Assembly (NCBI GenBank): GCA_964187785.1
Contig: OZ076409.1
Coordinates: 30,258,001-30,318,000, forward strand
Length of the DNA: 60,000 bases
Source: Amphiscolops sp. MND2022
Taxonomy: Eukaryota
Direction of reading: 5' to 3'
Shown here: in pieces, positions 1,471 to 36,200 of the stretch
Layout: each line of letters begins with the position of its first letter
Position numbering within the stretch: position 1 is the stretch's first letter
The notes under the pieces: generated by a model
What the model was told of the DNA's origin: nothing
The model's input: the letters and a program-made list of their open reading frames with translations, nothing else
Database searches by the model: none
Program-made: the position numbers and the translations under genes

Positions 1471-1830
1471 GCAAATACCCAACCTTTTTTTAGTCATTCA
1501 AGTCTAAAATTGCTTTGCCGACCATTCATACAGTACTGTGGCAGATAAATCATCGAAAAATGCTTTGGGAAAGCATGGGCTTGGAAGAAAATTTGGATGT
1601 TGAACGAAATTCTAGCGAAGGTTGAAATAAGCAATCGCTGAAACCAACTGTGAAATATTGCAAACTGCTATCCCAGTGTAAAAACTCTTGCAATTCTTGA
1701 CAACAATCATGGATAATTCTGGATTTCTTGGTAAGAATCTTGGCAAAATTCTTACAAAGAAATACACGAATTTGCAAGATCGTGCCAAGAAATTCAAGAG
1801 ATGAGCTGACAAAAGTGAATGAAAACAAAC

Positions 1831-4900: not shown

Positions 4901-4902
4901 AT

Positions 4903-5444: not shown

Positions 5445-5639
5445 CTTTAGCCGCTGTATTCTTCGTCAACTTTTGAAGTTTTGATGAAAAATTCAAAGTT
5501 TCAAACAACTTGGTTTAAACTGAACTGAATTGAAACCGTCATTTTTTAGAACTTTTAGACCGTAATGGTGAGGTTATCTTTCTTTATAAGGTTTTGCGTT
5601 TTCTTTTAATTTGCATCAAAACAAATCTTGAATCACCCG

Positions 5640-6178
5640 TTTTTAGTCGGCGCTTTTCGAAGAAAAACGCAGACTATAGTAGTGACTTTTTTTCAAGACC
5701 AACGAACTGACAGATTTTTTAAAGAGTTATAAAAAGCTGAGCTGACTTACAGTAACTGCACTAACAGTAACCGCAACGCTAGCTATCACTGCTGGCACTT
5801 GGCATAGAGGTTAATTAAGCTTTTTGAGGTCTGCCAAGCAGAAGGACGTGGGTTCGAGTCCCGTCCTTGATCAAATTTTTTTGTGCAGGTTTTTTTCGGC
5901 TTTGTGAGACTTTTTTCGCAAATTTTTTTAATGTCTCCAAAGGGTCCACCCTTCTTTTTTTTCTATTTTGGATAAGAATGGATGTTCAAAACCTCCCAAA
6001 GGGCCCCTTTTACAATTATTTGGCACTATGCAACTTACCAGAGACTTTTTTTAAATTCGGATTTTTTAAAATTTTTCCTCACGCGGGTACTGTAGAAGAG
6101 AATACTTGACACTTTGAAGTCCTTTTGCTATTTTTGAACCTTAGATATGGCGCCGACTTGGGCCGTTCCCGGCTTGTT
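5640..6178 (+). mobile_element. HINE-like non-autonomous element, subfamily B, with tRNA-like segment
   Basis: TTTTAGTCGGCGC start; GGCGCCGACTTGGGCCGTTCCCGGCTTGTT end; CTGCCAAGCAG...GGGTTCGAGTCCC at ~5830-5865. Confidence 0.65.
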
Positions 6179-8973: not shown

Positions 8974-11900
8974 GCCCACACAAGGTCCGTTATTTTAAAT
9001 GTTTCCCCTTTGTTAAGGGAAATAATTATTCAGTACTCGGGTTCATCATTGCTTTGGTAGAGTCTTTCTAAACTTCCTGTTCTAAGCAAAGAGCAAGTTT
9101 TCAGTTTTTTAGTCAGCTCTACTCAGGTTAATTTCCGGATTTTCTGACACAAGTGGTGAACAAAATTGTTTGAGTTAACTCCAGTGTTGAAAGTGAGAAT
9201 TGATCAGGTTCCCACAAATTTGGTCAACTTACGTTTATGACTATTTCCATTTTTGAGCTGCCTTGCGTTTTAGCTCCTCTTGAATTCCACATCTCAGCCT
9301 CTTTTCAAATCTCTTCTACCGATGGTTTAACACCTTCGACTCCATTTACTGATCTCCTGCATCACTCTACTCCTGAACGACTTGCAAGATCCTTCCTTGC
9401 AAGAAGATTTGGAGCAATTTGATTCTGACGGGATCGAGCATTCTTTTGAGAAGAGCAACCTCACAGTCAACCAGACCGTACTATCTCCAATTAGAAAGGC
9501 TGATCTTCGAGCATCGCAGGAAAGAGTCCAGGCCACTGTTGATGATAATCCTGAGACCATCGCAAAGCCAGTGCCGCATGCAGCTAATGATACGGGTGAC
9601 GTCAGGGGACGTTCCTCTCAATTTTGAATTGGTGGATCCAACATCTGGGAGAGCTGGACTCTCACCGTTTTCTATATTTCTTGATCGGAGCCAACAAATT
9701 GGTGCGTTACCACAACAAACTGACAATCCTGGAACTGCAGAATTTCACACTACTCATTCTCTTCCTTCCCAAGATTACGTAACTTCTTCCGATTTAGTTG
9801 CTCTAGAACAACGATTATTGACTCTGGTCACAAATGGATGTCAGTGCTACCATTGGGTCCAGATTGTTAGAGCATATCTCAACTTCCACCAACGTTAACA
9901 TTTCATCCAATGTTATTCAAGAAACAAAATCTCCGTGGTTTGAGACTCCAACAACGAATATTCCTTCTGTTTCATTTACTTGACGACCAATACCTTCACC
10001 TGCAAAAAGCGCTGCGAACGAGTTCAATCCCGCATTCGAGATTCCAACTTTGAACATGCCACTTCACCGGAGCAACCTGGTACTTCTAAAAGGTCCAAAA
10101 CCTGACTGCAATTAGGCTTGCGAATGATCAAGAAACACCCCGTCTTAAAATTCTCTGTTAAGGTCCGCCGAGGGTTCTGAGGGCAAACCTCACCCGTGGA
10201 GGTGTCGAGTTTGTCATATGGAACTTTCTTTAGAGACAAAAGGGTCTTTAGAGATATTGTCTCATTACCGGACAGAATCACATTTGACTCGAGAGCATCG
10301 GATCCGTATGGAGACTCACCGCTTACCCTATTCGGGAAAAACGACCAGGAATTGGTTGGTGTCGCGCTCGATGAAGCCCGTAAGAAGGCTGACCTGGAGT
10401 ACCCCATAGCACCAATATTGGGGGAAAGTCATGTCCTATCTGGACAGAGAGAGTTACTTGTGGCGGTAGATGACTTGACCCATCCTCTATAGTTCGCTCT
10501 CAAATCCGAATTTTACTAGCTGGACTGCAACATGGTGGTATTTTAAAGGTACTTTCTTCTCTCTGGAGCAACCTCAGTCTAGACGTCTGCGGACCCGCAA
10601 GAGTTCCTCTGTTCAATTGGGGTCATGAACGTATATTTGAAGGTACCAACTATAATATTTGTTATTTTCATAAATATGGACCTGTTAATATTCTTGATAT
10701 TTTGGACAGGAGATATTGGTTGACATGTTTCGCGAGCTCTTTACTTATTCTGTTTCGTCTAACGCCCAGTCTGGTCATTATTCCTTGCAACATCGTGCAA
10801 CCTCTGGTTCCTTGCAGGTCATCCTAGCATTCTGGGCAGGAAGTGTACACCCTTGCTTCTGTCTGGGGGAGTTCATGGACAGTGTTATAACTGCAAAAAA
10901 GCCCTCCAAGTCATCTTCTCTTACATTGCTATTTTCCCGAAAGTTCTTACTTTTTCTTCTGGGTTCCGATGATCTTAGTACCAAGTTATTGACGTCAGAG
11001 CTGGAACAGATTCTTTCAATTTCTGTCATCCCTACCATCCTTTTTGAAGAATTGGACAAGTAAGTATAAGTTTCCTAGATACCATTTTGTCAATCTATTT
11101 TCCTTTGTTTCCTGCATCGCAATTTCAAACAATGAAGGTGTACATTCTGATGCTGATTTTTGCCTCTATGCTGATTCTTGAAAACCACATTGTCACAGTC
11201 CGCTCCCGGACTGGATTGCGGATGCAGGAGAGTTGGCTTTGGGCGTGGACATGGGTGCACCGCAAGACTCACGAAGAGGTATTTTGGCTATTAACTCGAA
11301 CTCTAACTAAATTTAAATAAACTGTGACTTGAAATGCAATAATACTTTTGCCTAGCAAAAATTCCAAATAAAACTAGTGAACGCGTTCTAGATTTTTCAT
11401 GCTCTCGCAAAATTGAATAAAATAGTACCGGAAATGTAAAATACACATTTACCGCGCGCAAATTTGAGCGGAAATGAAATAAGGAAGCAAAATAATCCAA
11501 AAATGATTTCACGCATGTTTGGCTGGACGAGCCAGCCACGACAAATGAAACATTCACAACCTGAAAATTAGAATAAAACTATCCCAAGAATAAAGAGACC
11601 ATAAGCTAATCTAAACGAAAATACATCAAAACTAATCCCGAGAAAATACATTTCATTCGGACCTAAAACAGGAAATTACAGTGAGACAACACACCGTGGT
11701 GATTAAGCCTTTTCTGAGAAAGACAGCTTAATTACTCTTTGAACAGCAATTAAAGTGATTTAGGACGTCAATACTGCGCTGAGTAAACAAAGCGGCAAAG
11801 GAAACAAGAATACATGTATATTTGTCGTTAGTAGGACGCAGACAAGTTTGAAGGCATACCAATTGACGTCACTGCCTCGCATATGCATACCAGAAAATCA

Positions 11901-12042
11901 TTCCAATTATCCGCCTATACTAATAGCATTGCTAGAAATCATTCCAATTTACCGTCACTGTGACGTCACTGCTCCGGCAGCTAGCGAGAGATTCATTTCT
12001 AAAATACTCGTCAGCATTGCGTCAAACTAGTCAAAATCTCTA

Positions 12043-12190
12043 TTCTGCCAAGAAAACTCGTCAACATGACGTTGACAAGTTCATGAAGCTTAAATTCTGC
12101 CAAGAAAACTCGTCAACATGACGTTGACAAGTTCATGAAGCTTAAATTCTGCCAAGAAAACTCGTCAACATGACTTTGACAAGTTTATGA
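12043..12190 (+). repeat. 52-bp tandem repeat (~3 copies) in LTR U3 containing palindrome GTCAAC-ATGAC-GTTGAC
   Basis: Unit TTCTGCCAAGAAAACTCGTCAACATGACGTTGACAAGTTCATGAAGCTTAAA at 12043, 12095, 12147; repeated in the 3' LTR at ~25962-26110. Confidence 0.9.
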
Positions 12191-13174
12191 AATTGAATAA
12201 AGTGAACGAATTTGCCGAATTTAGTCAAGTTTTCATCGCGCAAATGCCGTTATTTCCTAAGGAGAGAAAATTGCAGACTGTTGCAAATTGTATAACGAAT
12301 ACATTGTTGATTTTCCATGGTTTAAGGTCCCATTTTAGAATGAGTATTGACACATGTAGGATAATTTCAACCTCACGTTAAGTAACGATCATGTATCCTT
12401 AACAATAAAGAAATTTACGTGCATAAATCATCTTATTACAAGATTTCGCAGTAGATTAATGAGGAAGTCACAGTTTATTCTCTCCAACTAAAAAGCATAT
12501 TGTGTACCAGAAATGTATTTTTCATATATTTTGCATTTTTGTACTCTACAACATTGAACGTTGTGCTTGTGAGTGTGATCATGTTTTTCTATATTAGTAC
12601 ATCCGTTGCTGTCTAGTTATTTACGTTGTGTTGGTGTTGTTATTTAACAAACGTTGTTGTTAATTTTGTAAATTTTGTCGTGTTTGACACGACATGACAA
12701 GGTTGCTAACAAAGTATTATTTTCATATCATGATTTCATTCCCATCTCTAGCAAAAGATTGAATCCAAATTCATAAAATATCGTCCCAGCATCGTTCAAA
12801 TATTCCTATTTTGGAATTAGTCATAGCATTTTTATCAAAGCGAAATTCAAAATCAAGTATTTGTTGTTCACGTCAGCGTCATCTCAGCGTCAATTTCCCG
12901 CGAACCAAAGCAGTAAAACAGGGAAGCATTTCCGGTTTGACAGACTGAAGTAATATCTACTTCCTGCTTGGTAGGAAGCAAAAGGACGCCGGGATGAAAT
13001 GATATGATCATGTTTGATGACTAATACTATTTTAAAGTTGCCGTGTCTTAAAAATCGACGAAATGTCAGCGCGAATTTGGGAACTTCGTGATTTTTTCAT
13101 CGATAAAACAGGAAATGACTAATTGTTCGAAGGAAATTAGGGATTATGGTCGTGATCAAATGATGCTGGGAGGG

Positions 13175-13213
13175 TATAAATATGATAGGATTTGATGATT
13201 AAGGGACTCAGTC
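13175..13213 (+). promoter_or_regulatory. LTR core promoter: TATA box and Inr
   Basis: TATAAA at 13175-13180 and TCAGTC at 13208-13213, ~30 bp apart; gag ATG ~115 nt downstream. Confidence 0.6.
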
Positions 13214-13326
13214 TTTTGCAATTGTACAATTCAGTTGAATTTTCAATTTCACTCTCGCCTTGTTCTACTTTGTCAGAAAAATCTTTGAAAGAAATTCAAT
13301 TCTTCAAGTTCAAACTTTTCTACAAA

Positions 13327-14766
13327 ATGTCAACAACAAGAAGCCAAAAAAGAAGGAACGATCAGCAAAGCACCAGTGAGAACGTAAGTGAAGGCTTGAT
13401 TTCACCCATAGTAGTAGGAAATCCTTGTTCTTTGAATCAGGACGATGAGGTAGCGGGGCCTTCTAAACCAAAATCCCCCCGGATTGAGAATAGTCTCTTT
13501 GAAAGCTTGAGGGCTTCCTTAAAGGAGGAAATAACGTCAAAGATTAAGAATCTTCTTATTGAATCCCAGAAGGAGATGTTGAAACTCCTTAAACCTGAAA
13601 CAAGAGGGATCATTAGAGAAAATACCGAAGAAGAGGTAGAGGAGGAAATTAGAAGTTTCTATACTCCTACAAAATCAGTGAGAATAAGTTCAACTCAAAA
13701 CGACCCGATAGCATGTCGTAACATGGTGACAGGAGTCCTAACCGATTCCACAAACCAGCCAAAAAGAACAAAAGCCAGGTCTCAGAGCCAACCGCCGTCA
13801 AAAGAACGTCCAGTAGCGGCAAGGACTTTATTTGCAACAGATAAAAACGATAGCACTACTCTGCCCAAGCCAAAAGCACTCACGGCGTCACTCCCAACCT
13901 TCAATGGGAAGTCGGAAAAATTCGAACTTTTCGAAGACCTTTTTCGCAATAATATCAAAATGTATCCACACCTTACGGATATCCAAAAAATAAACTATTT
14001 CCACTCCCTGCTCAGGGGAGATGCTTTACAAGCATTTTGTAATATCGAAGATACGAAAAAGGATTCCCTTGATGAGATCATGACGATCTTCAAACGACGC
14101 TTCGGAGATTATTTGTCCATGGCCAAGGCAAGATGCGAATGGGATGAGCTCAAATTCGACCCCTCGAACCAGAAACTCCACGAATTTCTAGATGTACTGC
14201 AAAAAACAGTCAAAGAAGCTTTTGGCTCTGAAGCCCAACAATTTATTGACAAGGCAATATATGCAAAAATGCCAGACCATGTAAAGAAAATTTTAAATAG
14301 AGCGTACCTTGAAGACAAACCCTATAACGACATCGTACTGCATCTAGAAAGGGGAATGAGACTTAACGGCCTCGGGGCGCCAGATGAAGTAAACCTGGTA
14401 CCACTAAACAAAGTAGAACCGGCCCCACCAAACACTGAGTCCAAACAGGCCGACAACACAACGCAAAACACCAAGAAAATGTATTGCTTCTACTGCAACA
14501 AATTCGGACACTACAAGGCGGAGTGTAGGAAAATGAAAAGAGATAAATGGATGCAAACCAAGAAAAACAATGGCCGACCCAGCAGCAGTTCAGGCAAACC
14601 ACTTAAATGCGATACCTGTGGAAAACCCCACAAAACAGAAAACTGTTGGAACGGAGCTAACTCGGCAAATGACCCGAGACCTAAACGACATCTCCAACAA
14701 GAAAGGAAACAAGATAACTCTGCACAACAGCAGACAAATCAAGCCGCAGATGAATCAAAAAACTAG
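13327..14766 (+). CDS. gag: Gag polyprotein
   Basis: First ATG in AAAATG context after the promoter; capsid-like LPTFNGK...INYFHSLLRGDA; zinc knuckles CFYCNKFGHYKAEC and CDTCGKPHKTENC. Confidence 0.93.
   Translation: MSTTRSQKRRNDQQSTSENVSEGLISPIVVGNPCSLNQDDEVAGPSKPKSPRIENSLFESLRASLKEEITSKIKNLLIESQKEMLKLLKPETRGIIRENTEEEVEEEIRSFYTPTKSVRISSTQNDPIACRNMVTGVLTDSTNQPKRTKARSQSQPPSKERPVAARTLFATDKNDSTTLPKPKALTASLPTFNGKSEKFELFEDLFRNNIKMYPHLTDIQKINYFHSLLRGDALQAFCNIEDTKKDSLDEIMTIFKRRFGDYLSMAKARCEWDELKFDPSNQKLHEFLDVLQKTVKEAFGSEAQQFIDKAIYAKMPDHVKKILNRAYLEDKPYNDIVLHLERGMRLNGLGAPDEVNLVPLNKVEPAPPNTESKQADNTTQNTKKMYCFYCNKFGHYKAECRKMKRDKWMQTKKNNGRPSSSSGKPLKCDTCGKPHKTENCWNGANSANDPRPKRHLQQERKQDNSAQQQTNQAADESKN
13724..13738 (+). 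promoter_or_regulatory. Primer binding site (probably tRNA-Leu type)
   Basis: TGGTGACAGGAGT immediately after the LTR CA end; complementary to a tRNA 3' end ...ACTCCTGTCACCA. Confidence 0.75.
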
Positions 14767-14812
14767 TTACGCCGCGCCTGCGATTCGCGGAAACCGTAGC
14801 CGCGAGGGCGTA
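14757..14812 (+). promoter_or_regulatory. -1 ribosomal frameshift signal (gag to pol)
   Basis: Slippery heptamer A_AAA_AAC (14757-14763) just before the gag TAG, followed by a GC-rich stem (TCGCGG...CCGCGA); the -1 frame is open and continuous into the pol ORF at 15252. Confidence 0.85.
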
Positions 14813-17800
14813 CTCATCAACAGATCCCCCCATCACCTATACAAACGACTCAACAGTAGGGTGTGATGTCACACCAACGATAGATTGGCTAAGACGACAA
14901 GCACTCGCTTCTATAAAAAGGTCATATCCACAAACCGAACAAGCAGAAACCTACACTCACGATAAAGACTACAGGGACAATCCTAAACAACAAGCAAATC
15001 GTCCTACCAACTTACCCCCCATCAACAGAGAACTCTCCGCTACAAACCAGATAGAACAAAATGAAAGCGCCTCGGACGACCGCCTATCGTCACAACAAAA
15101 TGAAAGAGATAATCACGACTCCACCAAGACATTTCTGTCCCCAGACGATTTCCCCACATCACTCAACTCAATCAAGGAGTACGTAGCCGAAAAGGATGGA
15201 GAAACATATATACCTCTCCACTCCACTATAGTCCTCAAGAACAGAAGGAGAATGCTGTACTTGCCACTAGAATTCGGTGAAATAACAATGGATGGACTTG
15301 TCGACTCAGGTGCGTTCATCAATGCCATGTCCTGGTCAGACTACAACGCAATCAAAATGAACAGTGATAGTTGTGTCATAAAAGAATACCCTCAACCTCC
15401 TTTCAAGATCGAATGCGCAAACGCCCAACTAGAGCAACCAATAGCCACAGCGGACATCCAGTTCAATATTGGAACATATACCATCACGGATACCTTCGTC
15501 ATCCTGTCGAAAACGTCATTCCCTATCATAGGATTGAACTTCATGAGAAATCACCAAGCAGTAATTGACACTGCCAACGGAACCATCAATTTCCCGCACG
15601 TCGAAATGACGCTAGCCATGACGGACGAGATGAAAAAATGCAACCCGAAACCGCTCCAAATAATGGCAGAAGGAAATCAAACCCTACCGCCCCAACGAAC
15701 AACAACAGTGAACGCAATAGTCATAACCACAAACATGCATGACGTCACTGGTGCGGTACAACCACTACCACAATTTGATGAAACAGCAACAATCATTGTT
15801 GCACCAGCTCTGGCGACAGCCCATAACAAAAGGCTCAACATCAGAATCGCCAACCTAACGGATTTCCCACATACAATAAAGAATCATACAAAGCTGGCAG
15901 AACTACAAATCCTCAAACCTGAGGACACGAAACAAATACGACCAGTTGATGCCGCCGCACTCAAATTGTTAGAAGATCCTGATGACACACACATGTACAT
16001 CAACGAACTTATGAAATCAAATGAACATGAACAAAGCGATGAAAACCTCTGGTTCCCCACACCCGAGAATCCAGGGAACGAAGAAGAACATACGCCAATC
16101 CAACGTCGGATCTTGAAGGAAATCCGCGAACTCATCCAAAAGGAAAACTTAGATCCAACCAAAGACCCAGAATCAAGACAAAAATTCCTTGACATGTTTC
16201 AGTGGGAAGGTTCTCAAATCGAAGGCAACGACAGGAAGCAACTTGAGCAAACAATAGTCGAATACAACGATATCTTTGCCCGTCATCGCCTTGATATTGG
16301 AATCAACAATAGCTTCAAAGTCAAATTAACTCCGAAAGACGAGCGCCCAATTTACACGCAAAGCCTATTGGTACCAATCAACCTGAAAGAAGATCTAACA
16401 GTTGAATTAGCACTAATGCATAGGTACGGCATAATAACGACCCTACCATTCTCAAAATATGCAAGCCCAATCTTCGCACAACGCAAACCGAATGGCAAGT
16501 TGCGACCACTCGTCGACCTACGAAAAATAAACGCATTAATCTCAGACGATTACATCAACAATAACCACCCAGTCAGCACCCTGTCAGATGCAGCTCAACA
16601 TCTAGCTGGAAAAAAATTGTTTTGCAAACTAGACTGCTCACAGGCATATCATTGTCTACAGATGGCAGACCAACGATCAATCGAAATGCTAGCCTTCAAC
16701 TTTGCAAGCAGAACGTTCGCCTACAAACGCCTAGCACAAGGACTGAGCAGAGCCCTGTCGGCATTTTCAAGTTTCATGCGAGAATACCTGGATAAAGTAA
16801 TCAAGGCCGACCAATGCGCGCAGTACGTGGACGACATCGGAATTGCAGCCAACTCTGTGACACAACTGATACGCAACATCCGAGCAGTTTTTGAATGCAT
16901 CCGAAGAGCGGGACTCAAGCTAACCATCGAAAAATGCCATTTCGGAGTAACTGAAGTCGAATTCCTTGGAAGAACGATCACACCACAAGGAATCGCTCCG
17001 CAGGATCATAAAATTCAAAAATTCTTAGCAAATGTGAGATTCCCAAAATCCAAGAAACAAGTACAAAGATACATCGGTTTTGTCAATTTTTATCGCAACT
17101 ACATCCCGAGACTGTCTGAGAAATTGCTCGGATTCAATGAACTACTGAAAGCAGACAAGCAAATCAAAATCACAGAAGAACTACTCGACCATTACAAAGC
17201 CATCAACGCAGCACTGGCGCAAGCTTGCGGTTTAGCACTCAAACAACCAATCACAGGACGACAGTACGTCCTGATGACGGACGCCAGCTTCCGAGCCTCT
17301 GGCTACGCCCTAATGATTGAGGAAGACAACGACAAAAAACTCAATTCAAAAAAGAAGACATTTGCACCAGTCGCATTCGGATCAAAGGTGTTCTCCCCGG
17401 CTCAAATCAAAATGTCAATTTACTGCAAGGAATTTCTAGCAATCTATCACGCCTTCCTTGAATACAGCCATATTCTATGGGAAACAACCCTACCAACTCT
17501 TGTGATGACCGACAACAGATCGGTAACGCGTTTCTTCCAAACATAAGCAATCCCGCCCACTCTGTGGAATGCATGTGATTACGTACTACAATTCAACTTC
17601 CACATAATGCACGTCGCGGGTACGCAAAACACGGCAGCCGATTTTCTGTCAAGAATTGATCTCAATCCCAAAGAAAGAGTTGAACTAAAAATCAGAGAGG
17701 ATATTACAATCAGGCCCATCCAAGTGAATCTCCAATCAACGGAAGTCGCGGATGAGGAACAACTTTTCTTCCTTCCGGATGAAACAATTGAAACGGAAGA

Positions 17801-19700
17801 AGAAATCCTACTGCAGAAAGAACAAGCTAGACAAAATGCACGCGACGAGGAGACGACCAAAATCAAAATAGCCATCAAAGAAACCACCCCAATCCCAATA
17901 AATAAGGCATCTTATACCTTTGGGGCAATAAAGGAAGACGCACGTATTAGAGTCGAGAAAGACTCGAACTTGGTTTTCAAAGCAATCAAAAAGAAATTGA
18001 TATGTGAAGAATACGACAAACACCTTCTACAGACCGATCCGACAGCCAAGCGCCTCCTAATCCACGAGAACAGACTAATAGTGAAAGATGGAGTACTAAT
18101 GCGCAAATATTACGGGGAATGTGGCCAAGTCACTCACCATCAAATTTTAATCCCCGAACATTTAATCACAGAACTCTTGAAAGCAATTCATGGACAAATG
18201 GGAAAGCATCCAGGAATCACAAAAATGATTCAAGAATGCCGATCAAAATACTACTACCCAGGATTAGCAAAGAAGATCAGACAGTGGGTAATGCAATGCG
18301 AAGAATGCATCAAATACAAACGAATCAACAACAGCCAAATCCGACCAAAGATGATCAACAATACGGAACACGTCCTAGGCCCAGAAGATATCCTAGAAAT
18401 TGACATATTGCCGAACTTACCAAACTCCGCAGGATATCAAAACATCGTCACGATGATTGATGTTTTTTCACGTTACCTATTTGCATACCCAACGCAGAAT
18501 AGCACAGCAAAAACAATAGGACGATGTATTGTCGACGTCATGACAAGACACGCATACTTGCCAACATTAATCTTATCAGACAAAAGCTCACAATTCCGAT
18601 CAGAAATCGTCGCAGAAATAACCCAGATACTTGAAATTCAAATCAGCCACGCATCTACGAAGCATGCACAAACAATCGGAATTCTGGAAAGAACGCACGC
18701 TTCAATCAAAACCGCCCTAAAAATATCAACGGGCGAACGACGCTCAATGTGGCACAAATATGTCCAAATCGCAGTGATGAATTACAATACAACATACCAT
18801 GAAACTCTGGGCTGCGAACCATCTACAGTATTTCACGGACGTATACCTTACAACGTTCTCGATTTAAAACTGGGCATCAAGCCAAAGTGGAAAACCACCC
18901 CCCATTCAGATGTAGCAGAACAACTCCAAAAACAAATTGACGAAGTGCGAGCGACGGCAAAGGACAACATCATGCTGTCCTATCTCAAATACAAAAAACA
19001 CTACGACCGCAAAGCAACCGCGGCTCCACTAAAAATCAACGACTACTGCTATATACTTAACCCGAAAGCCGACAATCAATCGACAAAGTTTGCGTTTCAA
19101 GATTGCATCTGGACAGGACCGTATATAGTAATCAAAGTGCTTTCAAACAACAACTACACAATACGAAAAATTGGCACAAGATATACACAAACACTACACA
19201 GAATTCGCATACGACCTTACGTGCCAGAACAGCGCTTGCCCGACGTCACAGTACGAGCCAACGACTACCTTCCTGACCCAGAAGTTAAAGTCTCACACAA
19301 TGAACGGTATGCGGTATCATGGGAAATGGATTTTGGAAAGCAGATTGACGAACACGAAACATTAAAAAGTACAGAAAACAATCAACACATAGAAAGACAA
19401 GAAGTGACAAATACGAACGACGAAGACACGACGTCTCAAATGTCAAGAAGTCAAACTGATGACACAAATAACGAGGCGCCGCCATCTCCGGATTTTTCAA
19501 ATCTTACTTCAGAAGTGGGAGATAACCCATACATACGACGCCCCCCACCCATTGAAAGTCCACCTATTCCCCCAACATCACCGCCTACAACTATCGGACA
19601 TAACCCGAGAAAAACAGCAAAGTATAACCTGAGACCTAATCCTAAGCCTAACGCAAATCCTGACTTCCGACGACTTGACGCTATAACTACAACTTACTAA
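14760..19700 (+). CDS. pol: Pol (protease, RT, RNase H, integrase) with one premature stop
   Basis: LVDSGA protease; KLDCSQAY and YVDD RT; MTDAS RNase H; HHCC plus D/D/E (EIDIL, SDKS, LERTH) integrase; single in-frame TAA at 17544-17546 separates two same-frame ORFs. Confidence 0.95.
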
Positions 19701-19961
19701 ATGAAAAGACAGTATCAGTAGTCCAAACCGAACCGGTCTGACGATTTTCAATTGTAGGCATACTACGGCCTAAACGAATATTTTTTTTTCTCTTTTTTTT
19801 CTCTATCTTTTTCTTTCCAACTACAACATTTGGAATATCATCCACGCCAGCATAATACAAAGATACAAAAGAAAGCAACACTTAATACAATCTACATTAC
19901 AACGTCACAACAAAGCAAGAGTACTACAATAAACATGGAAACTGTCTTAAAGTAAAAGTCA

Positions 19962-22900
19962 CTATTTCTTCGAGCTAGATTCACCACCTTTACTGGCAGA
20001 CTTTTTGGACTTCTTCTTGACCACGTTCACAGGCTCCGGTATGACTTCGAAACCACCACGAGAAGCATCTTTCTTTCGCCCAAGCAAAGACGCCAGGCTA
20101 CTGTGAACATGCGTCTTACTCCGTCTAAATGAACTGGTATCACTTGAACTAGGCATAGGAGGGAGAGACGCAGCTGACACAACACTATCCGACAATACTG
20201 CTGAAGATACATCGTCATCGCCACCAGAACGCAAAGCTGGATTCAAGGCATCAGGAGAGCAGGTCTGTTGTGAAACCTCACCCCTCTTCCGGTCGACCCG
20301 AGTTTTAAAAAGATCAGCATAACGCTTCACAAAAGCAGCCTGACCTTCACTGCAAATATCAGCCCAGGGATCGTAGCCAGCGTTCGACATAAAAGACTGC
20401 GAAGCATCAATTGCATCACGAACTTCTTTCATTGTAAACTTGGTAAAAAACGAACTCAGTTTAAAATCAGAAGCAGAAACACAACTTTGCACACCACTAA
20501 TACAGGAAGCTATCACCCACTCGGACACTTGACAGCTTGTCAGACCAAAATCCACAGAAGGGTAATCAACACGAGGTTTCAGCGCTACCAAACAACATAA
20601 TTTGAAGACGCGAACTAAACTCTTGCTGGACAAGAAACTGTAGTCTGATAACAGGTATTGCTGAACATCAACAACGTCCTCTGCACTGGCCCCACAATCC
20701 TCATGCCGCCTCCGCGCATCCACAACAAAGGTTGAATACTCCTCGACAGCCGTCCTCGACTCGGAAGATGACAAACAACCACTTGACTCCAGGACCCGAA
20801 CCAACTTGCTAAACAGACCCAACATGTGATGGTCATCTCCTTCTAACAATAACTCTGGACAAAATGCATAAAGTCCTTGAGAAAACTCCCCAGTCACAGG
20901 TTGTTGACCCAGAATAGCGTCCACCAGTCGGTCCATGAACTTTCGACACTGCTCGCGGAAAGTTCGCCCACTCCCGTCATTACGACCATGTAAAGTCAAC
21001 CCGAAGGAATGGTTTCGCAGGAAATCGTCAGGAGAAATGGAATCGAACTCGTCCACCTTCTCCGCATCGATATACTCCTCCCAATTGTGCAAGCCTGGGA
21101 GAGAACTGATTTTCCGGGTACGCGACAACAGGCAGTAGACAAATTGGCACACTTCCATGTAAAAATGGAAACAGTAATCCATGCGTCCGGACAGCAGCTT
21201 CTTGAAGGAACAACGATCTAAACACAAAATATTTCCACCATATGTATGAAGTCAACATACCCAAAATCCCAACCCGTCAGAACCCAGCCAATAACATAGC
21301 GAAAGCACAACAACTTACAAAGCTCCAGGATGTGTAGAAGAAGACCCAATCGTAGCTCACCCACACCATCAGAGTACACAGTCCAGTCAGTGCCTCGCAT
21401 CTTTAAAAAATCAAATATTCCCACTAAAGTTACCAACACCAAACGAGAAGAGAAAAGAGAGAAGAACACAATCAACACAAGAAAAACAACTAAATAGCCA
21501 AATACATTGCTACTACGAATACTAGGACATAACTTACCCGGCCAGCTTCAGTTTTGATATGACGAGGTGCACTATCCCTGATGAATTTCCGCACTAAAGT
21601 CCACACAGAGAGCAAATCCTTCACGACATCACATAGGTCAGAAAAGACCACTCGTCCAGCAATCACGCTCCGGCGCAGTGCTGGCAAATCGTCGAACCAC
21701 GATTCTTGTAGGGCACCACGCAAACGCAAAACCAGGAAATCAATCATGGTGGTCACTTCCAAACCACCAAACACCTCCTGATAAGCCAGGCGGAAACAAT
21801 GCACGAAGACATCCTCGTTGAAATCCCGGAACACGACAAAGCTACGACTGTCCACTCGACTATCACTCAAGACACGTAAGAGCGTAGGACTGCCCCCACG
21901 ACAAGCAAGATGCAGCTGACAAGAAGTCGTGCTGTCAACGATACGAGACAGACCAGCCAATTCTGCTTTAGGCGCATGTTGTCCAGAGGGCTCCACCCAG
22001 ACACAGACACTCATCTAACAGTGCTCGTCCCACGTCTGTACGAAACACTTATGAGTTCTCTCATCCTCCACAAAGAACACACTGTACTCACGAAATGCAG
22101 AAATCCGCGAGATGAACAAACGCAATGCCCGAGGGAAAAGCGCACGGCAAATTATCGACTAAAACACAAACCAAAATTTGCATCCCAAAAATGCCGAAAG
22201 TTACTCCCTATGACTTCTAGCAGACACCAACACAAAACAACCATATACAAATCGAAAGCGGAAAATAGAACAGCAAAATTAAGACTCACCAAGGATTCAG
22301 CAAGGCTCCAATTCAAACTGTACAGGGGATTCTCTCGGCCCAAAGTCGCTCGGAAACTCCCCCAAAGACGTCGTAAGAGAGTATAACTTCCACCCGACCG
22401 CAGCAACTCAACCAGACAATTGATCATCGTCATCAACGGGACACTCGAATTAGCTTGAGTGCATGCTGGCAACAGATCTTCCGGGAAGCTGAACCCCTCA
22501 CTTTTTCCTTTGCGAGGCCGATCACGATACTCTGACAGTTGAGCCTCAGTCAACACCATTGGGTCCATCAATCTGTTGAAAACTGGCATGTCGTTCTGCA
22601 CACGATAAGTCACGTCCAAAACCCAGTGCCGTTTACCGAAGAAGTGGCGAGCAAATTCGGCAGGGCCTCTTGACTCCATCGATACGTCTCGCTGACAGAT
22701 CATACAGTGGAACAACTTATCAGATCCAGTACTTGACCCACTGACGAAGAGCTCAAACACGGGGTGCCCCGAAACCATGTCGCGTCGCAATCGATTACGA
22801 GGACTGTAGGCTCGTTTTCGCCCTCGAGTGGCCCCCTCCAAAGTCGACTCCATTCTCTGTATCAACTCTTCGAATTCTATAATGGACAAAACGCAATTTC

Positions 22901-24023
22901 AATACAAGACAAAAACAAATAGACACTACAACATAGCACCTCCAAATAGAGAACAATTACTAACAAAAAGAGAGAAAGGAAAACAAACAAAAAGAGGAGG
23001 AAACGATTTTACCACAAAGGAAGAGAAACATTGCGGTATGAATAACCATCAAACCATACTTACTAGCTACAAATGGATCCATGGCATGTCTCTCAGCGTC
23101 TGACTCGACAACCGGTCGCCGCCCTGGAATCAGTGATAGAGTTTTACTGGTAGAAGGTTCAGCGACTTCTTCATCTCCACTGCTGCGCACATCGAACTGA
23201 ACATGTCTACCACTGCTTTCTGACGTGCCCGGACGAAGTTGCAGCAACTTTCCACTCTGCCCAAGTGACTTTTCTTTGTCGGGAGCGGCCAGTAAAGCTA
23301 ATACACAATAGCAAGCAATATTAGGCAGCACAATCAAACCGACTATGGGAAACTAACTTACATAAATAAACAACTAAAACCAACAGTCAACTCACTCACC
23401 ACGTTTGGAAGCAGGAGAACTGATTCGATTGCCGAATGACTGACTGAAACCAGGCAAGAAATCACTGAACCGTGGAGAAGACGTCTTTGCAGCAACATCA
23501 TCTCCTGGCGTCGTTTCTACCTGCTTGCTACTTCCTTGTAGGGGGGGGGACAGAATCTCACCTCCGCGAGTCTCTGAAGCCACGGAAGAACGAATCTGCT
23601 GTGCAAGAGCTCCCAAAGTCATGTCCAATTCGTCAGAATGACAAACAACAGAGTCACTAATGGCAGAATCAACTCCACCAACAAAAACCCGAGAAGGACC
23701 ACCTGGGAAAGAAATTTCCGGAGTAGTGGCGAGAACACCACCAGCAGGGGACGGAATAGTTGGGCCAGAAACTGAAATAACATTCCCCTATTGACGCGTC
23801 AGAAAATCTAAGCTGTGAAAATACGAAACAGAAAAGGTCTATCTGAGAGTAGTATTATTCATAAAAGCTTAATGGTCCGGGGAAGAATAAGCCCACCTGT
23901 TGCCTGCCGACGAATAATATCGCCATCACTCTGGTAGATGTCTCCCTCAGAGAACATGAATTGAGTTTCATTGCCGCTCTGAGCGCCGGTGTCACGACGG
24001 GACGGAGGAGGCTCCTGATCCAT
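19962..24023 (-). CDS. Spliced antisense gene, ~1092 aa, hAT-transposase-derived with zinc finger; one in-frame stop in this copy
   Basis: Exons (minus): 24023-23897, 23771-23400, 23297-23064, 22876-22290, 22158-21538, 21400-21319, 21217-19962; all six introns GT..AG and phase-compatible, total 3279 nt; CMIC-x16-H-x5-H finger; single TAG at 22015-22017; exon 1 donor (GTGGGC) is the weakest part of the model. Confidence 0.8.
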
Positions 24024-24069
24024 CTCAAAATAGCAGAAATCTGGAAAAGAGAAGATATGAAAACAACAA

Positions 24070-24400
24070 TCAAAACTGACGTCACCATAACGGTGACAAA
24101 AATGAAAGTTGGCTAATTACCAACGAAATTGACGTCGGCATAACGTCGACAAAAAGGTTATCAGGGTTAAGAAATTAATCCTATATCCTAAAATGACGTG
24201 ATCAAAACGGTGACAAATTACAAAAGTTAGCTATGCTAGCAAAAATGACGTCAGCATAACGTTGACAAGTTTGGCTAAAGGAATTATTTCAATTTCTTGT
24301 TCAATAAAAAGAGTTGTCGACATAACGTCAACAACTGCGGATCGAAAGGATTTAAAAGATTGATTAACCAATCAGAATGAAGGGATTTATCCCAACATTC
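24070..24400. promoter_or_regulatory. Putative internal bidirectional promoter with repeated palindromes
   Basis: Lies between divergent starts at 24023 (-) and 24482 (+); TGACGT-led GTCRRC-ATAAC-GKYGAC-like motifs at ~24077, 24130, 24194 (degenerate), 24246, plus a related core at 24316; CCAAT at ~24369. Confidence 0.55.
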
Positions 24401-24481
24401 TCAGCAATCCTAATTATCCGGGAAAATTCATTGTGAAACAATCAAACTCGAAAAACAGCAGCCAAGAAATTTCATCACAGA

Positions 24482-25213
24482 ATGAACAACTTGTTAGACA
24501 TTTACGAACTAATCGACATCTCGTCATCAAGCGATGAGGAAGGCGAAATAACAAGATCGTCCACCCCAATACCTAGAGACAGCAGGGCCTACCCGGGGTT
24601 GGTCATCGAAATTCTGAACTCATCAGCAGAGGCGACCGCAGACGAAGAAGAATGCCTCGACCTATCGGTAAACTCACTAGAAACAGAATGCAAGAAAATG
24701 AAGCTGAGTGAGTCGTTCTCTAGTTTTGAAACTGTAGAATCGGGACAATACCCCCACTCTGAGTTGACCGAAGAAGTTATTGCTGACTCCCCGGAAAGCC
24801 CTGATGAAAGCTTGTCTTCGGACATATTCATAGTAGAAGCCCCAGCTGTACAAACCGAATCAGTAACAAGTAGCAAAGTAGCCGAATATCTGGAGAAGGT
24901 GCATCAAGAAGACGCCTCTTCATACTTTGTCACGCCACCTGGTCCACTGAGAAGAATAAATCAGCTGACAACCAGTCCTCTAAACGATCTGGAGGAGCCG
25001 AAATTAACGCTAGACAAAGTCAAGGAAAACTACACTCACGAAAAGCACCTGCGCCAGGCGTTCGACTTCTATCAACCCGGTAAAGCCGTTCGTCCCATGA
25101 CAGTGGCCCTGTCACAGTCCGCTCCCGGACTGGATTGCGGATTCAGGAGAGTTGGCTCTGGGCGTGGACATGGGTGCACCGCAAGACTCACGAAGAGGTA
25201 TTTTGGCTATTAA
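24482..25213 (+). CDS. Acidic Ser/Glu-rich accessory ORF (243 aa) overlapping the 3' LTR
   Basis: Intact ATG-started ORF; last ~34 codons lie in the 3' LTR; no signal peptide or transmembrane segment visible. Confidence 0.65.
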   Translation: MNNLLDIYELIDISSSSDEEGEITRSSTPIPRDSRAYPGLVIEILNSSAEATADEEECLDLSVNSLETECKKMKLSESFSSFETVESGQYPHSELTEEVIADSPESPDESLSSDIFIVEAPAVQTESVTSSKVAEYLEKVHQEDASSYFVTPPGPLRRINQLTTSPLNDLEEPKLTLDKVKENYTHEKHLRQAFDFYQPGKAVRPMTVALSQSAPGLDCGFRRVGSGRGHGCTARLTKRYFGY

Positions 25214-27645
25214 CTCGAACTCTAACTAAATTTAAATAAACTGTGACTTGAAATGCAATAATACTTTTGCCTAGCAAAAATTCCAAATAAAACTAGTGAA
25301 CGCGTTCTAGATTTTTCATGCTCTCGCAAAATTGAATGAAACAGTACCGGAAATGTAAAATACACATTTACCGCGCGCAAATTTGAGCGGAAATGAAATA
25401 AGGAAGCAAAATAATCCAAAAATGATTTCACGCATGTTTGGCTGGACGAGCCAGCCACGACAAATGAAACATTCACAACCTGAAAATTAGAATAAAACTA
25501 TCCCAAGAATAAAGAGACCATAAGCTAATCTAAACGAAAATACATCAAAACTAATCCCGAGAAAATACATTTCATTCGGACCTAAAACAGGAAATTACAG
25601 TGAGACAACACACCGTGGTGATTAAGCCTTTTCTGAGAAAGACAGCTTAATTACTCTTTGAACAGCAATTAAAGTGATTTAGGACGTCAATACTGCGCTG
25701 AGTAAACAAAGCGGCAAAGGAAACAAGAATACATGTATATTTGTCGTTAGTAGGACGCAGACAAGTTTGAAGGCATACCAATTGACGTCACTGCCTCGCA
25801 TATGCATTCCAGAAAATCATTCCAATTATCCGCCTATACTAATAGCATTGCTAGAAATCATTCCAATTTACCGCCACTGTGACGTCACTGCTCCGGCAGC
25901 TAGCGAGAGATTCATTTCTAAAATACTCGTCAGCATTGCGTCAAACTAGTCAAAATCTCTATTCTGCCAAGAAAACTCGTCAACATGACGTTGACAAGTT
26001 CATGAAGCTTAAATTCTGCCAAGAAAACTCGTCAACATGACGTTGACAAGTTCATGAAGCTTAAATTCTGCCAAGAAAACTCGTCAACATGACGTTGACA
26101 AGTTTATGAAATTGAATAAAGTGAACGAATTTGCCGAATTTAGTCAAGTTTTCATCGCGCAAATGCCGTTATTTCCTAAGGAGAGAAAATTGCAGACTGT
26201 TGCAAATTGTATAACGAATACATTGTTGATTTTCCATGGTTTAAGGTCCCAATTTAGAATGAGTATTGACACATGTAGGATAATTTCAACCTCACGTTAA
26301 GTAACGATCATGTATCCTTAACAATAAAGAAATTTACGTGCATAAATCATCTTATTACAAGATTTCGCAGTAGATTAATGAGGAAGTCACAGTTTATTCT
26401 CTCCAACTAAAAAGCATATTGTGTACCAGAAATGTATTTTTCATATATTTTGCATTATTTTTGTACTCTACAACATTGAACGTCGTGCTTGTGAGTGTGA
26501 TCATGTTTTTCTATATTAGTACATCCGTTGCTGTCTAGTTATTTACGTTGTGTTGGTGTTGTTATTTAACAAACGTTGTTGTTAATTTTGTAAATTTTGT
26601 CGTGTTTGACACGACATGACAAGGTTGCTAACAAAGTATTATTTTCATATCATGATTTCATTCCCATCTCTAGCAAAAGATTGAATCCAAATTCATAAAA
26701 TATCGTCCCAGCATCGTTCAAATATTCCTATTTTGGAATTAGTCATAGCATTTTTATCAAAGCGAAATTCAAAATCAAGTATTTGTTGTTCACGTCAGTG
26801 TCATCTCAGCGTCAATTTCCCGCGAACCAAAGCAGTAAAACAGGGAAGCATTTCCGGTTTGACAGACTGAAGTAATATCTACTTCCTGCTTGGGAGGAAG
26901 CAAAAGGACGCCGGGATGAAATGATATGATCATGTTTGATGACTAATACTATTTTAAAGTTGCCGTGTCTTAAAAATCGACGAAATGTCAGCGCAAATTT
27001 GGGAACTTCGTGATTTTTTCATCGATAAAACAGGAAATGACTAATTGTTCGAAGGAAATTAGGGATTATGGTCGTGATCAAATGATGCTGGGAGGGTATA
27101 AATATGATAGGATTTGATGATTAAGGGACTCAGTCTTTTGCAATTGTACAATTCAGTTGAATTTTCAATTTCACTCTCGCCTTGTTCTGCTTTGTCAGAA
27201 AAATCTTTGAAAGAAATTCAATTCTTCAAGTTCAAACTTTTCTACAAAATGTCAACAACAAGAAGCCAAAAAAGAAGGAACGATCAGCAAAGCACCAGTG
27301 AGAACGTAAGTGAAGGCTTGATTTCACCCATAGTAGTAGGAAATCCTTGTTCTTTGAATCAGGACGATGAGGTAGCGGGGCCTTCTAAACCAAAATCCCC
27401 CCGGATTGAGAATAGTCTCTTTGAAAGCTTGAGGGCTTCCTTAAAGGAGGAAATAACGTCAGAGATTAAGAATCTTCTTATTGAATCCCAGAAGGAGATG
27501 TTGAAACTCCTTAAACCTGAAACAAGAGGGATCATTAGAGAAAATACCGAAGAAGAGGTAGAGGAGGAAACTAGAAGTTTCTATACTCCTACAAAATCAG
27601 TGAGAATAAGTTCAACTCAAAACGACCCGATAGCATGTCGTAACA
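25110..27645 (+). repeat. 3' LTR (2536 bp)
   Basis: Near-identical copy of 11191-13723, followed by the TSD CACAT. Confidence 0.97.
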
Positions 27646-27677
27646 CACATGCTGTCAGATTTGGCGATACTTGCTTG

Positions 27678-28205
27678 TTTTTAGTCGGCGCCTTTTCCCT
27701 TAAGGAAAAAAGCCCGACTATTACAGTGGGTAGTTTTTTTTCTTTTTCAGCCTACAATCTCACTCTGAATGGTCCACTTTTTACAATTTGTTCATCTTTC
27801 ATATTTGTTCATCTTCCAAGCCGGAGAGCGGGGGTTCGATTCTCGCACTAAACCATAATATTTTTATGCTTCCAAAAGTACAGCAGGTGAGACCAAAGGG
27901 TCCCCCCTTTGGGTTTTTTTCGGCACTATGCGACTTTTTTTTCGAAAATTTTCGGATTCTATCAAAAGGTAACCCCTTGCATTTTTTTGAAGTTTTCGGT
28001 TTTTAAAAACGTTTAATGAGCCTGAATGGCCTCTTTTTGAGTTTTTCGGCATTGTGCGACTTTCTAAAAAATACTTTTTTCGAAAAAAAAATTTTCAAAA
28101 ATTTTTTTGAAAAAAACTAATTTTTCCAAATGTTTCCAATAGTTGTTCTTTGAATATTTTTGAGCCTTAGATATGGCGCCGACTTGAGACGATCCCGTCT
28201 TGTTG
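27678..28205 (+). mobile_element. HINE-like non-autonomous element, subfamily B
   Basis: TTTTTAGTCGGCGCC...CCCGACT start; GGCGCCGACTTGAGACGATCCCGTCTTGTT end; tRNA-like remnant CTTCCAAGC...GGTTCGATTCTC at ~27813-27846. Confidence 0.65.
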
Positions 28206-32800: not shown

Positions 32801-33249
32801 GAGGTTGTTTCATAGGTGATGCACAAAACAGGGTCCAAAATGGGCACAAGAGACTTTTTCAAGTCAGAAATCTCTGTTGTGAGAATTATAAGCTAGCAGA
32901 GCAAAAAAATATGGAAGTATAAGAGATATTTAACAAGAGAATTTCGATAAGATAAGAGCCAAGGACGAAGAATAAGAGAAAAGAAGACAGACTTCACAAG
33001 TGTAGGAGAATTATAAGCAAAGAGAAGCTTAGAGAAATAGGAAAAGATGGGAAGCTACAAGTAAAAGAACAGAAGGAGAGTAGGAAAAGGAGGAGATAGA
33101 GAAGAAGAGAAAGGATGAAGGAAGAGAGAGGGCGAAGGTCTGCCAATTGGCAGGAGTTTCGATCTCCAGCTGTATCAAAACAGTACAGCATATTTGCCAG
33201 TGGTACTTGAGGGTGTATATTCCGGTCTCTGGTGATCCTGGAAAAGACA

Positions 33250-36200
33250 TGGTTATTCATTGTTTTCTTTATGTCTGAAAATTTTTCCTCAATTTCATCC
33301 TCTATTCATCCTCAATTTTATAATCTTGATTTCCCTCTACTCATTTCTCCTACAACACCTATGATTCTAATAGTAAAGATAAAAGCCTTAACCTTCCCCC
33401 TCCTATTCGTCCTTACGCCAAACAAAACCCTCTACCTCCTTCCATCGACACCACTTCTAACGTTTCTCTACAAACTCTTCCTTCTCTATTTCTAAATTTT
33501 TCTCCCTCTCTATCTCAAACCACCACAATCACTACCAAGCCTTCTCCTTCTCCTACACCCAACCAATACACTACTCCTTCTAACACTCCACCTGTGCTAC
33601 TCTCTAACACTGCACAACTCCCAGTTTATCAAATTCAAACCATACCTCCAAGCCATCTTTCCTTGAACAATACTCTTACTACTCAACCCTCCTCCCAAAA
33701 TACTCCGACATATTTCCCACAGAATCCTTCTTTAATTAATCAAAACCCTCTGTCATCTGTACCTATATCGCAAAATCTTTTTAATTCCCAACATTCTACC
33801 TCTAACCCCCCGTCTACATCATATTACCCAAATGTCTCACTTCATCCTGGATTTCCAAATTATCCCACAATTTCTTTCCAACCTCCTAATCTTCATCCTA
33901 ATCCTCTTCCACCATCTATTTCTGCATTACCCTTTAACCCTGCTTCTTCCTACCCTCCTCCACTACTTCAAATGACTCCTTCCGTTCCTTCTGCTGCCCT
34001 CTCAGACCCTATAAAATTTTTCGATGGCTTGCTTAGATCACACTTATCCTCCTGAAAAATTCTTAGCCCATCTTAGTGCTCGTGTAACATTTCAACTTGG
34101 TCCCCAACCTATTGATCTCCAATCAAATTTAACCTGGCCTTCTCGACGTATGTCCCTCCTCTATTGTTCTTTATCAGGAGCTGCCTCTAATTGGAAAGAG
34201 GCCTCCCACAAGTGTATAAAGATGATTGATCATCCTTTCTCCAAATTTTTAAGAAACAATTCGCTTCTCAAAAACACGCACACCAAGCTCAAATTGAAGC
34301 TTTTTCCTTTGTCAAAACGGATAATGAAATTGTTCGTCACTAAGCTCTCAAAGTTGAAACCCTTGTTAAACAAGGCTGGTATAACGAAGATCCATCCACC
34401 AATAACCTTAAATGCAATGAAATTTTCACCCGTGGTCTTCCCAAAAAATTAAAAGGTTTTGCCAATAAACGCCAAGTTAAACACATTTCAAGTTCGCTGG
34501 AACCTTCTATTCCTTTTCACTTTCTTGTCAATATGGTTGACTCTGAAGACATTATACTTGAAAAGAATAAAACTCAAGAACTTTCTCTTGAAATTAACAA
34601 TCTTTCCAACACCTTCCAACAAAACACAACTATCCAAGATACTCCCCCGGAACCTCCACAAATTCAAGTAGTGGATCCTAATATTGAATCCAAACCCCAT
34701 TTTAAAAAATGTTGTTCTTTTTGCCGCAAAAACAATCACTCTGTTTCAACCTGCTTACGTAGACTCAATATGCTTAAAGAATCTAAACCACAATCTCGAT
34801 CCCCAACTCCTTCCTTTTAGCAACATTGTAAGACACCTTCCAATAAACCTCAATATTCACGCTACCGTAATAGAAGTAACAGTAACTCTTACCGTAGATC
34901 TTCCCGTGATACCAGAGATAAATCTCGTTCTTACTCGCGCTCACATTCTCGTCCTAGATTCAATGATAAATCTTACCCTCAAAATTTTTTCTCCCTACGT
35001 AATCGATCTAGACATGAGAGACATTATCACCAATCCCCCCTCAAATCCTTTTTTTCTGTTTCACGTCCATTTTATAATTCCACCTCTTCTCGTAGTCCAT
35101 CCAAATATTATTCTCGTGAACGCTAATCTAGTTATAAAAACGCCTCTTTTAAACGATACAAAAACTCTCCTTACCGTCCTCCATCTAAACCACGTAATGA
35201 TCGCTTCCGTACTAGATCGCATTCAAACTCAAAAAACTACTCTAATTTTCAATGTAAACCCTCTAATAATCTAACTCACCCATCTACACCACTTCTTCAA
35301 AGTAAATCTCCTACAGAACACAAATTTGAAATTAATATGTACCACCCTACTACTTCTTCATCACAATATTTCTCACTCTCCACTGAACATGCTAACGCTA
35401 TTACGCCTTCAACTTGGTTTGTCAATTTATATATTTTCAAACCCACTGAAGATACTTCGCTCCCTTCCAAATCAGAACTGCTATTTTTACTTGATAGTGG
35501 TGCATTTATCTGTGTTTTAAACTTACCCACCTTTACAATTTTAGCCGATCACTTTCTGAAGTGTTCAAAAAATTCTCCTCATAAAGATGAATTCAAAACT
35601 TTAACTGTCGCTAAAAAAACTGAAGTACCTATATTATACAATGTCATCCTCATCCTCCGCACTTCTATCCATGGAAGTACCCGCACACTTGTTATTCCTT
35701 TTGTAGTAGCAAACATCAAATACAATATTCTTGGAACTCTTTTTTTTGAAAAGTATGTTAAAACCCTTAATTTTGAAAACATGTCTCTTACATTTAACAC
35801 TCCTCATGATTCTCGTGTGAACACTCTTCCTTTTACATCTCATAAAGAAAAAGATTACCCGTCTTTCTCTTGTATATACACCATCAAAGTTGAAAATGAA
35901 ATCTATTTTAAACCAAACGCCTCTCAACTTATGCATTTTCCAATTCAACCAACTCTTCCTTTAACTTTTCAAAACTTCTGATAACGAAGTTATGTTTCCT
36001 TTTACACCTCAACCATTCTTTAATACACGTTTCAATTCTACTTTTAATTTTCTCCAGGTATATCAAAATATTAAAACTGAACCTAATAGTTGTTCCGTTA
36101 TTATTCAAAATATCACTCATCATTCTGCCATTCTCAACCCCGGATACATCGGATACATCGATGTCCCCGCAACTAATATTAAAACTCTCCACTACCTAGT

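Follow-up and report, generated by a model that had tools for sequence, protein, structure and literature searches.

We report a multi-exon gene, carried antisense inside a Ty3/Gypsy long terminal repeat (LTR) retrotransposon of Amphiscolops sp. MND2022, whose product appears from structural modelling to descend from a hAT-type DNA transposase and to have lost catalysis. The gene, hereafter the cargo, lies in a 60,000-nt window (assembly GCA_964187785.1, contig OZ076409.1, positions 30,258,001-30,318,000), on the minus strand between pol and the 3' LTR of a complete element that spans window positions 11191-27645. An earlier note, drawn from the window sequence alone, had proposed a catalytically dead hAT-type transposase captured by a retrotransposon. 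Modelling, together with a search for relatives in the 1.07-Gb genome (G000; 1,929 contigs), points to a real, selected and clade-wide feature: a Gypsy gene resembling known antisense accessory genes and of predicted hAT descent, not an active hAT transposase. We consider the hAT origin very probable and hold the catalytic inactivity of the cargo protein with the same confidence.

The case for hAT ancestry is structural. When a full-length homologue was modelled, Hermes was the top match in the PDB (4d1q, 8edg, 6dwz) and a hAT protein was the top match in BFVD, in agreement with the assignment made in the earlier note. The match to Hermes spans approximately 400 residues and covers both domains in order (model residues ~150-650 against Hermes ~135-609, at ~10% identity), with a lead of 6 Z units over the second-ranked fold; scores against the same model are only 5.5-5.8 for RAG1, ISCth4 and Tn5. 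In the predicted structure an RNase H-like core is interrupted by an all-helical insertion domain, which is the Hermes topology. Three structure libraries and a language-model search all back a hAT origin. A model of exon D alone gave no clear fold match, and whole P0253, a homologue, had no usable match in the ESM Atlas.

The hAT link is supported by this predicted structure and by the language-model lead, without a significant sequence or profile match, and the sequence-profile part of the check on the hAT assignment was accordingly negative. Pfam returned no family, PF05699 and its kin included, for the cargo exons, 73 alignment members and the full-length homologues, while host hAT controls do match hAT families. 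A profile search of the PDB with the cargo gave no match, cargo profiles detected no similarity among the open reading frames (ORFs) of 50 host hAT stretches, and hhalign against host hAT alignments, run whole and by segment with reversed controls, gave nothing significant; one non-significant segment alignment placed the second catalytic Asp on its mapped column, which we do not count as evidence. No relative was confirmed when metagenome and viral contigs were scanned, and DUF4371 had no match in G000 and none in the controls either. No donor hAT with an intact Asp-Asp-Glu (DDE) triad was found among the best 60-150 places per genome search, and of 59 inverted repeats none of the 25 longest forms a terminal pair that brackets the cargo. 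The host does contain Ac-like, Tip-like and DUF659-type hATs, several with intact catalytic motifs (L093-L098, L100, L161, L165); none of these is detectably close to the cargo.

Hermes activity requires D180, D248, R318, W319 and E572 (PMC6027215), and a host hAT aligned to Hermes retains the equivalents of all five. Catalytic sites were mapped onto the cargo by secondary structure and hydrophobic pattern, a placement that is not residue-exact, and conservation was counted over alignment rows of relatives, which are not independent. In the window copy, the first catalytic Asp maps to Val (22069-22071, minus strand) and the second to Gly (21895-21897, minus), both by secondary structure; the third residue, Glu in hAT transposases, falls at or adjoining an Asp in a predicted loop (20550-20552, minus; register inferred). 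Among the relatives, the first-Asp column at the end of strand 1 holds Asp in 0/56 rows, with Glu or Asp in 24/49 at the next column, and the second-Asp column at the end of strand 4 holds Asp in only four of 47, all of which lack the first Asp. No aligned row has an intact DDE triad, as the description of the protein as catalytically dead had implied, and the three windows scanned contain no invariant acidic column. The columns mapped to the RW pair carry Pro, Ser or Asp followed by Phe, and no Cys or His column corresponds to CxxH (register by eye). The third site is eroded rather than empty: the helix that bears the Glu in Hermes is not predicted, the segment is shorter, and a column near the site, in a loop, retains Asp in 30 and Glu in 14 of 60 rows. 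The earlier claim that the ERxFS motif is absent thus stands for the helix, not for the site itself, where an acidic residue stays at about that place.

Eighty-six other columns of the alignment reach 90% conservation or more, and they include the ligands of a zinc finger (39/40, 40/43, 37/40 and 41/42). Conservation averages 0.81-0.85 over the first 186 residues, versus 0.62-0.67 over the remainder. The finger (22626-22706, minus), of the form C-x2-C-x16-H-x5-H, is BED-like by pattern; the pattern is conserved, has no Pfam finger match and lies outside most of the structural alignments. All motifs on which the hAT reading was originally based do lie on the minus strand in the order claimed, from the finger (22706-22626) through the first-strand motif (22086-22060) to those of exons C and D.

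The predicted gene has seven exons, all on the minus strand: exon 1, whose coding part begins with an ATG at 24023 (24023-23897); exons 2 and 3, which encode a low-complexity arm (23771-23400 and 23297-23064); exon 4, or A, with the C2H2 finger and the best-conserved N-terminal region (22876-22290); exon 5, or B, with the RNase H-like core and the start of the insertion domain (22158-21538); exon 6, or C (21400-21319); and exon 7, or D, with the helical insertion domain, a degenerate C-terminal hAT region, a Ser/Lys-rich tail and the stop codon (21217-19962). The end at 19962 is as first proposed; the start is predicted not at 22876 but upstream of three further exons' coding sequence, at 24023. 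These three exons are less secure than the last four, although all read in phase, with a conserved exon 1 and pooled ratios of nonsynonymous to synonymous substitution (dN/dS) of 0.09-0.54 where computable. An acceptor directly upstream of the ATG (24041) is present in 19/19 loci in which exon 1 was found, and the predicted start of the transcript is therefore nearer to the 3' LTR.

The introns are GT-AG, approximately 100-190 bp long and in phase, and the 1,092 codons contain one internal stop, at codon 488 (22013-22015, minus). This stop is private to the window copy, being missing from 11/11 sister copies; from part of exon A to exon D, six of these sisters are open with all six splice sites, one is open with a changed acceptor and four bear a stop or frameshift. 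We surveyed splice sites in 20 loci picked from 150 exon-B matches and spread over 59-92% identity. GT and AG are kept in place at the exon A donor, exon B donor and exon A acceptor in 20/20 loci each, and at the exon B and C acceptors in all 19 loci where these were located; the exon D acceptor is kept in 11 of 14, and was unlocated in six. A second, independent line comes from homologues that lack these introns. A search with an exon-D profile led to P0185 (890 aa), and from it to 27 more proteins of 526-887 aa, with which window exons A, B and D are colinear and abut at the predicted junction; on P0185, exon A ends at residue 249 and exon B starts at residue 251. Splicing is thus predicted from site conservation and intronless homologues alike. 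P0253 and P0241 are encoded in G000 itself, at 100% identity, by lineages without the three core introns. These introns vary among lineages, and P0192, P0224 and P0175 apparently have another inside exon D.

Cargo matches were found at 150, 60 and 52 places, whose identity ranges imply disjoint sets and hence at least ~260 places, spread across all large contigs. We examined 20 intron-rich loci and 14 intron-poor loci, the latter chosen from the sets of 60 and 52. The cargo lies antisense directly behind a Gypsy pol in every one (20/20 and 14/14, or 34/34), and the 14 intron-poor loci also have LTR-like repeats; none of four other Gypsy families carries it in the 4 kb after integrase (0/4). 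For exons A, B and D, dN/dS is 0.14 in the sole unsaturated between-family pair (L058, dS 0.23) and 0.07-0.12 in nine near-saturated pairs, was not computable in 10/20, and is noisy among near-identical sisters (0.16-2.16, on few changes). Reverse transcriptase and integrase are constrained more tightly (mostly 0.01-0.09). Judged by these substitution patterns, the cargo is under purifying selection, which, with its constant position, supports the proposed capture by a retrotransposon.

Trees of integrase (31/35 rows, without L054, L057, L058 and L118) and of the cargo (35 rows, fast method), all unrooted, both split intron-rich from intron-poor elements at full support and share a further split within the latter; these common deep splits fit with a single old capture. 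At shallow depth, sequence comparison indicates that the parts of the element reassort and that the cargo moves between families as a module. L052 has a pol 95-99% identical to that of the window with a cargo only 59-75% identical (DNA), L058 has a cargo mostly 90-94% identical with a pol at 81-86%, and the downstream ORF and the start of the LTR are shared at 90-97% in L043-L046, whose cargos stand at 63-73%. P0224, a member of a 24-member cluster, has no match above 36% in G000, and the cluster therefore represents a further lineage in another assembly. Cargo-bearing elements also occur in tandem arrays with a spacing of ~13.6-14 kb (G000:C10:2574480-2603965 and G000:C13:16515582-16554205).

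The earlier note had proposed a role as transactivator, anti-silencing or targeting protein, and our results favour none of these decisively. The role that we regard as most likely, at about even chances, is self-activation or anti-silencing. An ancestor of the clade would have acquired a hAT transposase gene once, probably via nested insertion. Introns that lie opposite to the genomic RNA stay through retrotransposition, so that an intron-bearing gene can ride along; those of the cargo would survive because they are oriented against the reverse-transcribed genomic RNA. An antisense, spliced transcript of its own would express the protein, which may enter the nucleus and bind DNA by means of the finger that it has kept and the domain next to it; with catalysis lost and the finger and N-terminal region kept, it is most simply a DNA-binding protein. 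The cis elements that it binds would belong to its clade and lie either in the LTR or in the region upstream of the cargo, where it could raise element transcription or protect it against host silencing, recruiting host factors through its helical domain or its acidic N-terminal arm of low complexity. Activation of a transposase's own copies by the transposase is known to occur, and a transposase was the source of TnpA (10.64898/2026.08.24.746577).

The hexamer TGACGT is a candidate clade-wide target, and by its distribution one compatible with module swapping. It occurs seven times in 458 bp of the window versus five times in 5,977 bp of gag-pol, and a cluster of TGACGT-containing repeats lies upstream of the cargo ATG (24077-24330), with the hexamer clustered in the LTR of the window copy too. 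In the intron-rich group such a cluster is present upstream of the ATG in 20/20 loci, with an LTR cluster in all 19 that reach the LTR. Two points weigh against self-activation through such sites: intron-poor elements lack TGACGT clusters (0-3 per 4.5 kb), and host CREB/ATF factors would presumably bind the same hexamer. No repeated motif common to the cargo upstream region and the LTR was found in 14 intron-poor elements, and motifs co-vary with the cargo only partially.

Other roles deserve consideration. The protein could be a decoy, repressor or competitor, which acts on host hAT-derived chromatin factors or rival hAT transposases, by mimicry or by poisoning them in mixed oligomers, or dampens its own element so that less harm is done. 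In favour of this rather unlikely alternative, selection acts on the whole protein, including a large helical domain beyond the needs of DNA binding; free swapping across pol and LTR backgrounds suits a target outside the element; and host hATs are many, several with intact catalytic motifs. The 50 host hAT stretches, however, show no detectable similarity to the cargo, making mixed oligomers with those unlikely, and the nearly invariant finger residues point to DNA binding. A factor for integration targeting or nuclear import, tethering the integration complex to chosen host DNA, would suit the retained DNA-binding region and the Lys-rich tail, and other transposons have accessory proteins known to act as tethers (PMC13547354). 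We find this less probable again: the cargo is a separate antisense gene without fusion to integrase, cargos that are only 59-75% alike (L052) accompany integrases that are almost identical, and copies are spread over all large contigs.

It is very improbable that the protein is incidental, either because antisense transcription itself matters, through small-RNA regulation, or because the gene is a decaying passenger of a nested hAT insertion. Antisense RNA regulation has been described for retrotransposons (PMC7264820), and the window copy and 4/11 sisters carry a stop or frameshift; yet broken copies are expected after insertion, pol being broken in the window copy too, and the protein is conserved despite saturated synonymous sites, as are intron positions and phases. 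Nor did the 25 longest inverted repeats, of 59, include a pair flanking both ends of the cargo. That a remodelled active site still gives the protein nuclease or recombinase activity is, if anything, slightly less plausible. The acidic residue near the Glu site in 44/60 rows, the acidic residues directly after strand 1 in the window's lineage and the approximate mapping would allow it, but acidic columns in the scanned windows vary where 86 others hold at 90% or more, CxxH and RW are degenerate as well, and the Glu helix is not predicted. Least probable of all is that the protein is not hAT-derived and matches Hermes by a generic RNase H fold plus helices, given the extent of the match over both domains in order, its lead over the next fold and over RAG1, ISCth4 and Tn5, and the agreement of the three libraries with the language model.

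Several known systems resemble the cargo in part. The nearest named clusters in the language-model search were the host-domesticated hATs ZBED5, GTF2IRD2, ZNF862 and DAYSLEEPER, which are single-locus host genes; like the cargo they are hAT-derived and selected, whereas the cargo is multi-copy and still mobile in a retroelement. TldR, a nuclease-dead TnpB kept by prophages, is a case of a mobile element that has tamed the dead nuclease of another as a regulator, though prokaryotic, RNA-guided and of unrelated fold. With Hermes the cargo shares the predicted fold, an N-terminal finger of C2H2 pattern and the domain order; it differs in its degenerate catalytic Asp sites, CxxH and RW, its loop in place of the Glu helix, its long low-complexity N-terminal arm, and its location inside an LTR element without terminal inverted repeats among those inspected.

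Plant Gypsy elements and one fungal element have been described with antisense ORFs (aORF-3R) in the place behind pol, and their origin and function are stated to be unknown (PMC7264820, PMC11963269). Those of Retand (TRP28), Grande (gene23) and RIRE2 occupy the same antisense position between pol and the 3' LTR, and these sources also report family-wide conservation, nearby tandem repeats and a proposed nuclear regulatory role. The same papers give them no similarity to other transposable elements, and call nested insertion unsupported for that reason; the cargo, by contrast, has a recognisable class II transposase fold in its model. Its spliceosomal introns set it apart from them too, and neither Transposase_28 (TRP28) nor the PMD domain was matched by Pfam on the cargo exons or full-length homologues. 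PMD domains occur in both Gypsy and Mutator-like (MULE) elements and are not transposases (PMC5418596, PMC9289625). TnpA of Spm and VANC of VANDAL, the latter resembling MAIN (PMC13547354), are likewise accessory non-catalytic DNA-binding factors of mobile elements (10.64898/2026.08.24.746577; PMC13547354), an activity that is predicted for the cargo. Both serve DNA transposons, however, whereas the cargo sits in a retroelement. TnpA is transposase-derived as well, but comes from its own superfamily and retains a DNA-binding domain only (10.64898/2026.08.24.746577), whereas the cargo would be a near full-length transposase of another class. Animal Gypsy elements with captured extra domains of other kinds include planarian Burro (PMC6431247) and bdelloid ORF3 (PMC5408684); in the available text, a word search found hAT 0 times in the former and transposase 0 times in the latter. 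Our literature search, which covered mostly titles and the openings of abstracts, with Repbase and most subscription journals outside it, found no LTR element described as carrying a hAT-derived gene, and a prior note is possible.

The cargo would thus have an unusual, cross-class origin for a Gypsy antisense accessory gene, giving one such gene a recognisable ancestry, in a DNA transposase, that is visible only by structure; structure prediction may be worth applying to other orphan cargos. It would extend transposase domestication from hosts that recruit transposons to a retrotransposon that recruits a DNA transposon. In a Gypsy clade not of the plant type, it also supplies a candidate regulator, encoded by the element itself, that can be tested. 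It further illustrates spliceosomal introns kept inside an LTR element and differing among lineages, and accessory genes exchanged as modules among families.

A second accessory ORF (24482-25213, plus strand) encodes an acidic, Ser-rich protein of 243 aa and extends into the 3' LTR, whose start encodes a conserved Cys/Gly/His C-terminus. It was detected in 19/20 intron-rich loci, with dN/dS of 0.10-0.39 where computable, reassorts independently of the cargo, has no Pfam match and has no counterpart in the literature found. Several of its motifs, hydrophobic then acidic, resemble what we take to be SUMO-interacting motifs. A tentative proposal, possible but well short of even chances, is that the two proteins form a modular anti-silencing kit, in which an exchangeable, intron-bearing, DNA-binding dead hAT is paired with a SUMO decoy or recruiter and the parts are traded by recombination, helping to explain expansion to hundreds of copies. 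In the intron-poor elements L118-L148 a short sense ORF precedes the 3' LTR, and acidic antisense ORFs lie upstream; none of these is detectably similar to those of the window. Three of the four other Gypsy families sampled (L182, L183, L184) have a long sense ORF after integrase with a signal-peptide-like start, which by position is env-like.

The carrier has LTRs with TG...CA ends at 11191-13723 (2,533 bp) and 25110-27645 (2,536 bp), both plus strand, flanked by the 5-bp target-site duplication CACAT (11186-11190 and 27646-27650). The LTR pair differs by 15 mismatches over 2,533 aligned bases; these few differences, with the duplication, indicate a recent insertion. On the plus strand gag (13327-14766) matches DUF1759 and, weakly, a zinc knuckle in Pfam, and is followed by pol (14754-19700), whose Pfam order of protease, reverse transcriptase, RNase H and integrase is that of Ty3/Gypsy; in the window copy, pol is interrupted by an in-frame stop (17544-17546). 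The start of gag lies ~400 bp inside the 5' LTR (13327-13745) and is therefore repeated in the 3' LTR, and a primer-binding-site-like sequence lies within the gag coding sequence. The LTRs contain a 52-bp tandem repeat (12042-12191 and 25961-26110), and its palindromic core is related to the repeats found upstream of the ATG of the cargo. Around the element, a family of 100-170 bp repeats resembling miniature inverted-repeat transposable elements is dispersed in direct and inverted copies (475-6178 and 27893-28205). Further along the window, a 7-kb segment (33001-40000) that contains several long stop-free frames and is strongly skewed towards C over G (-0.36 to -0.52) is probably a degenerate repeat, and 54496-60000 is a tandem array of ~1.55-kb units, 88-98% alike, each with a stop-free frame of 180 aa.
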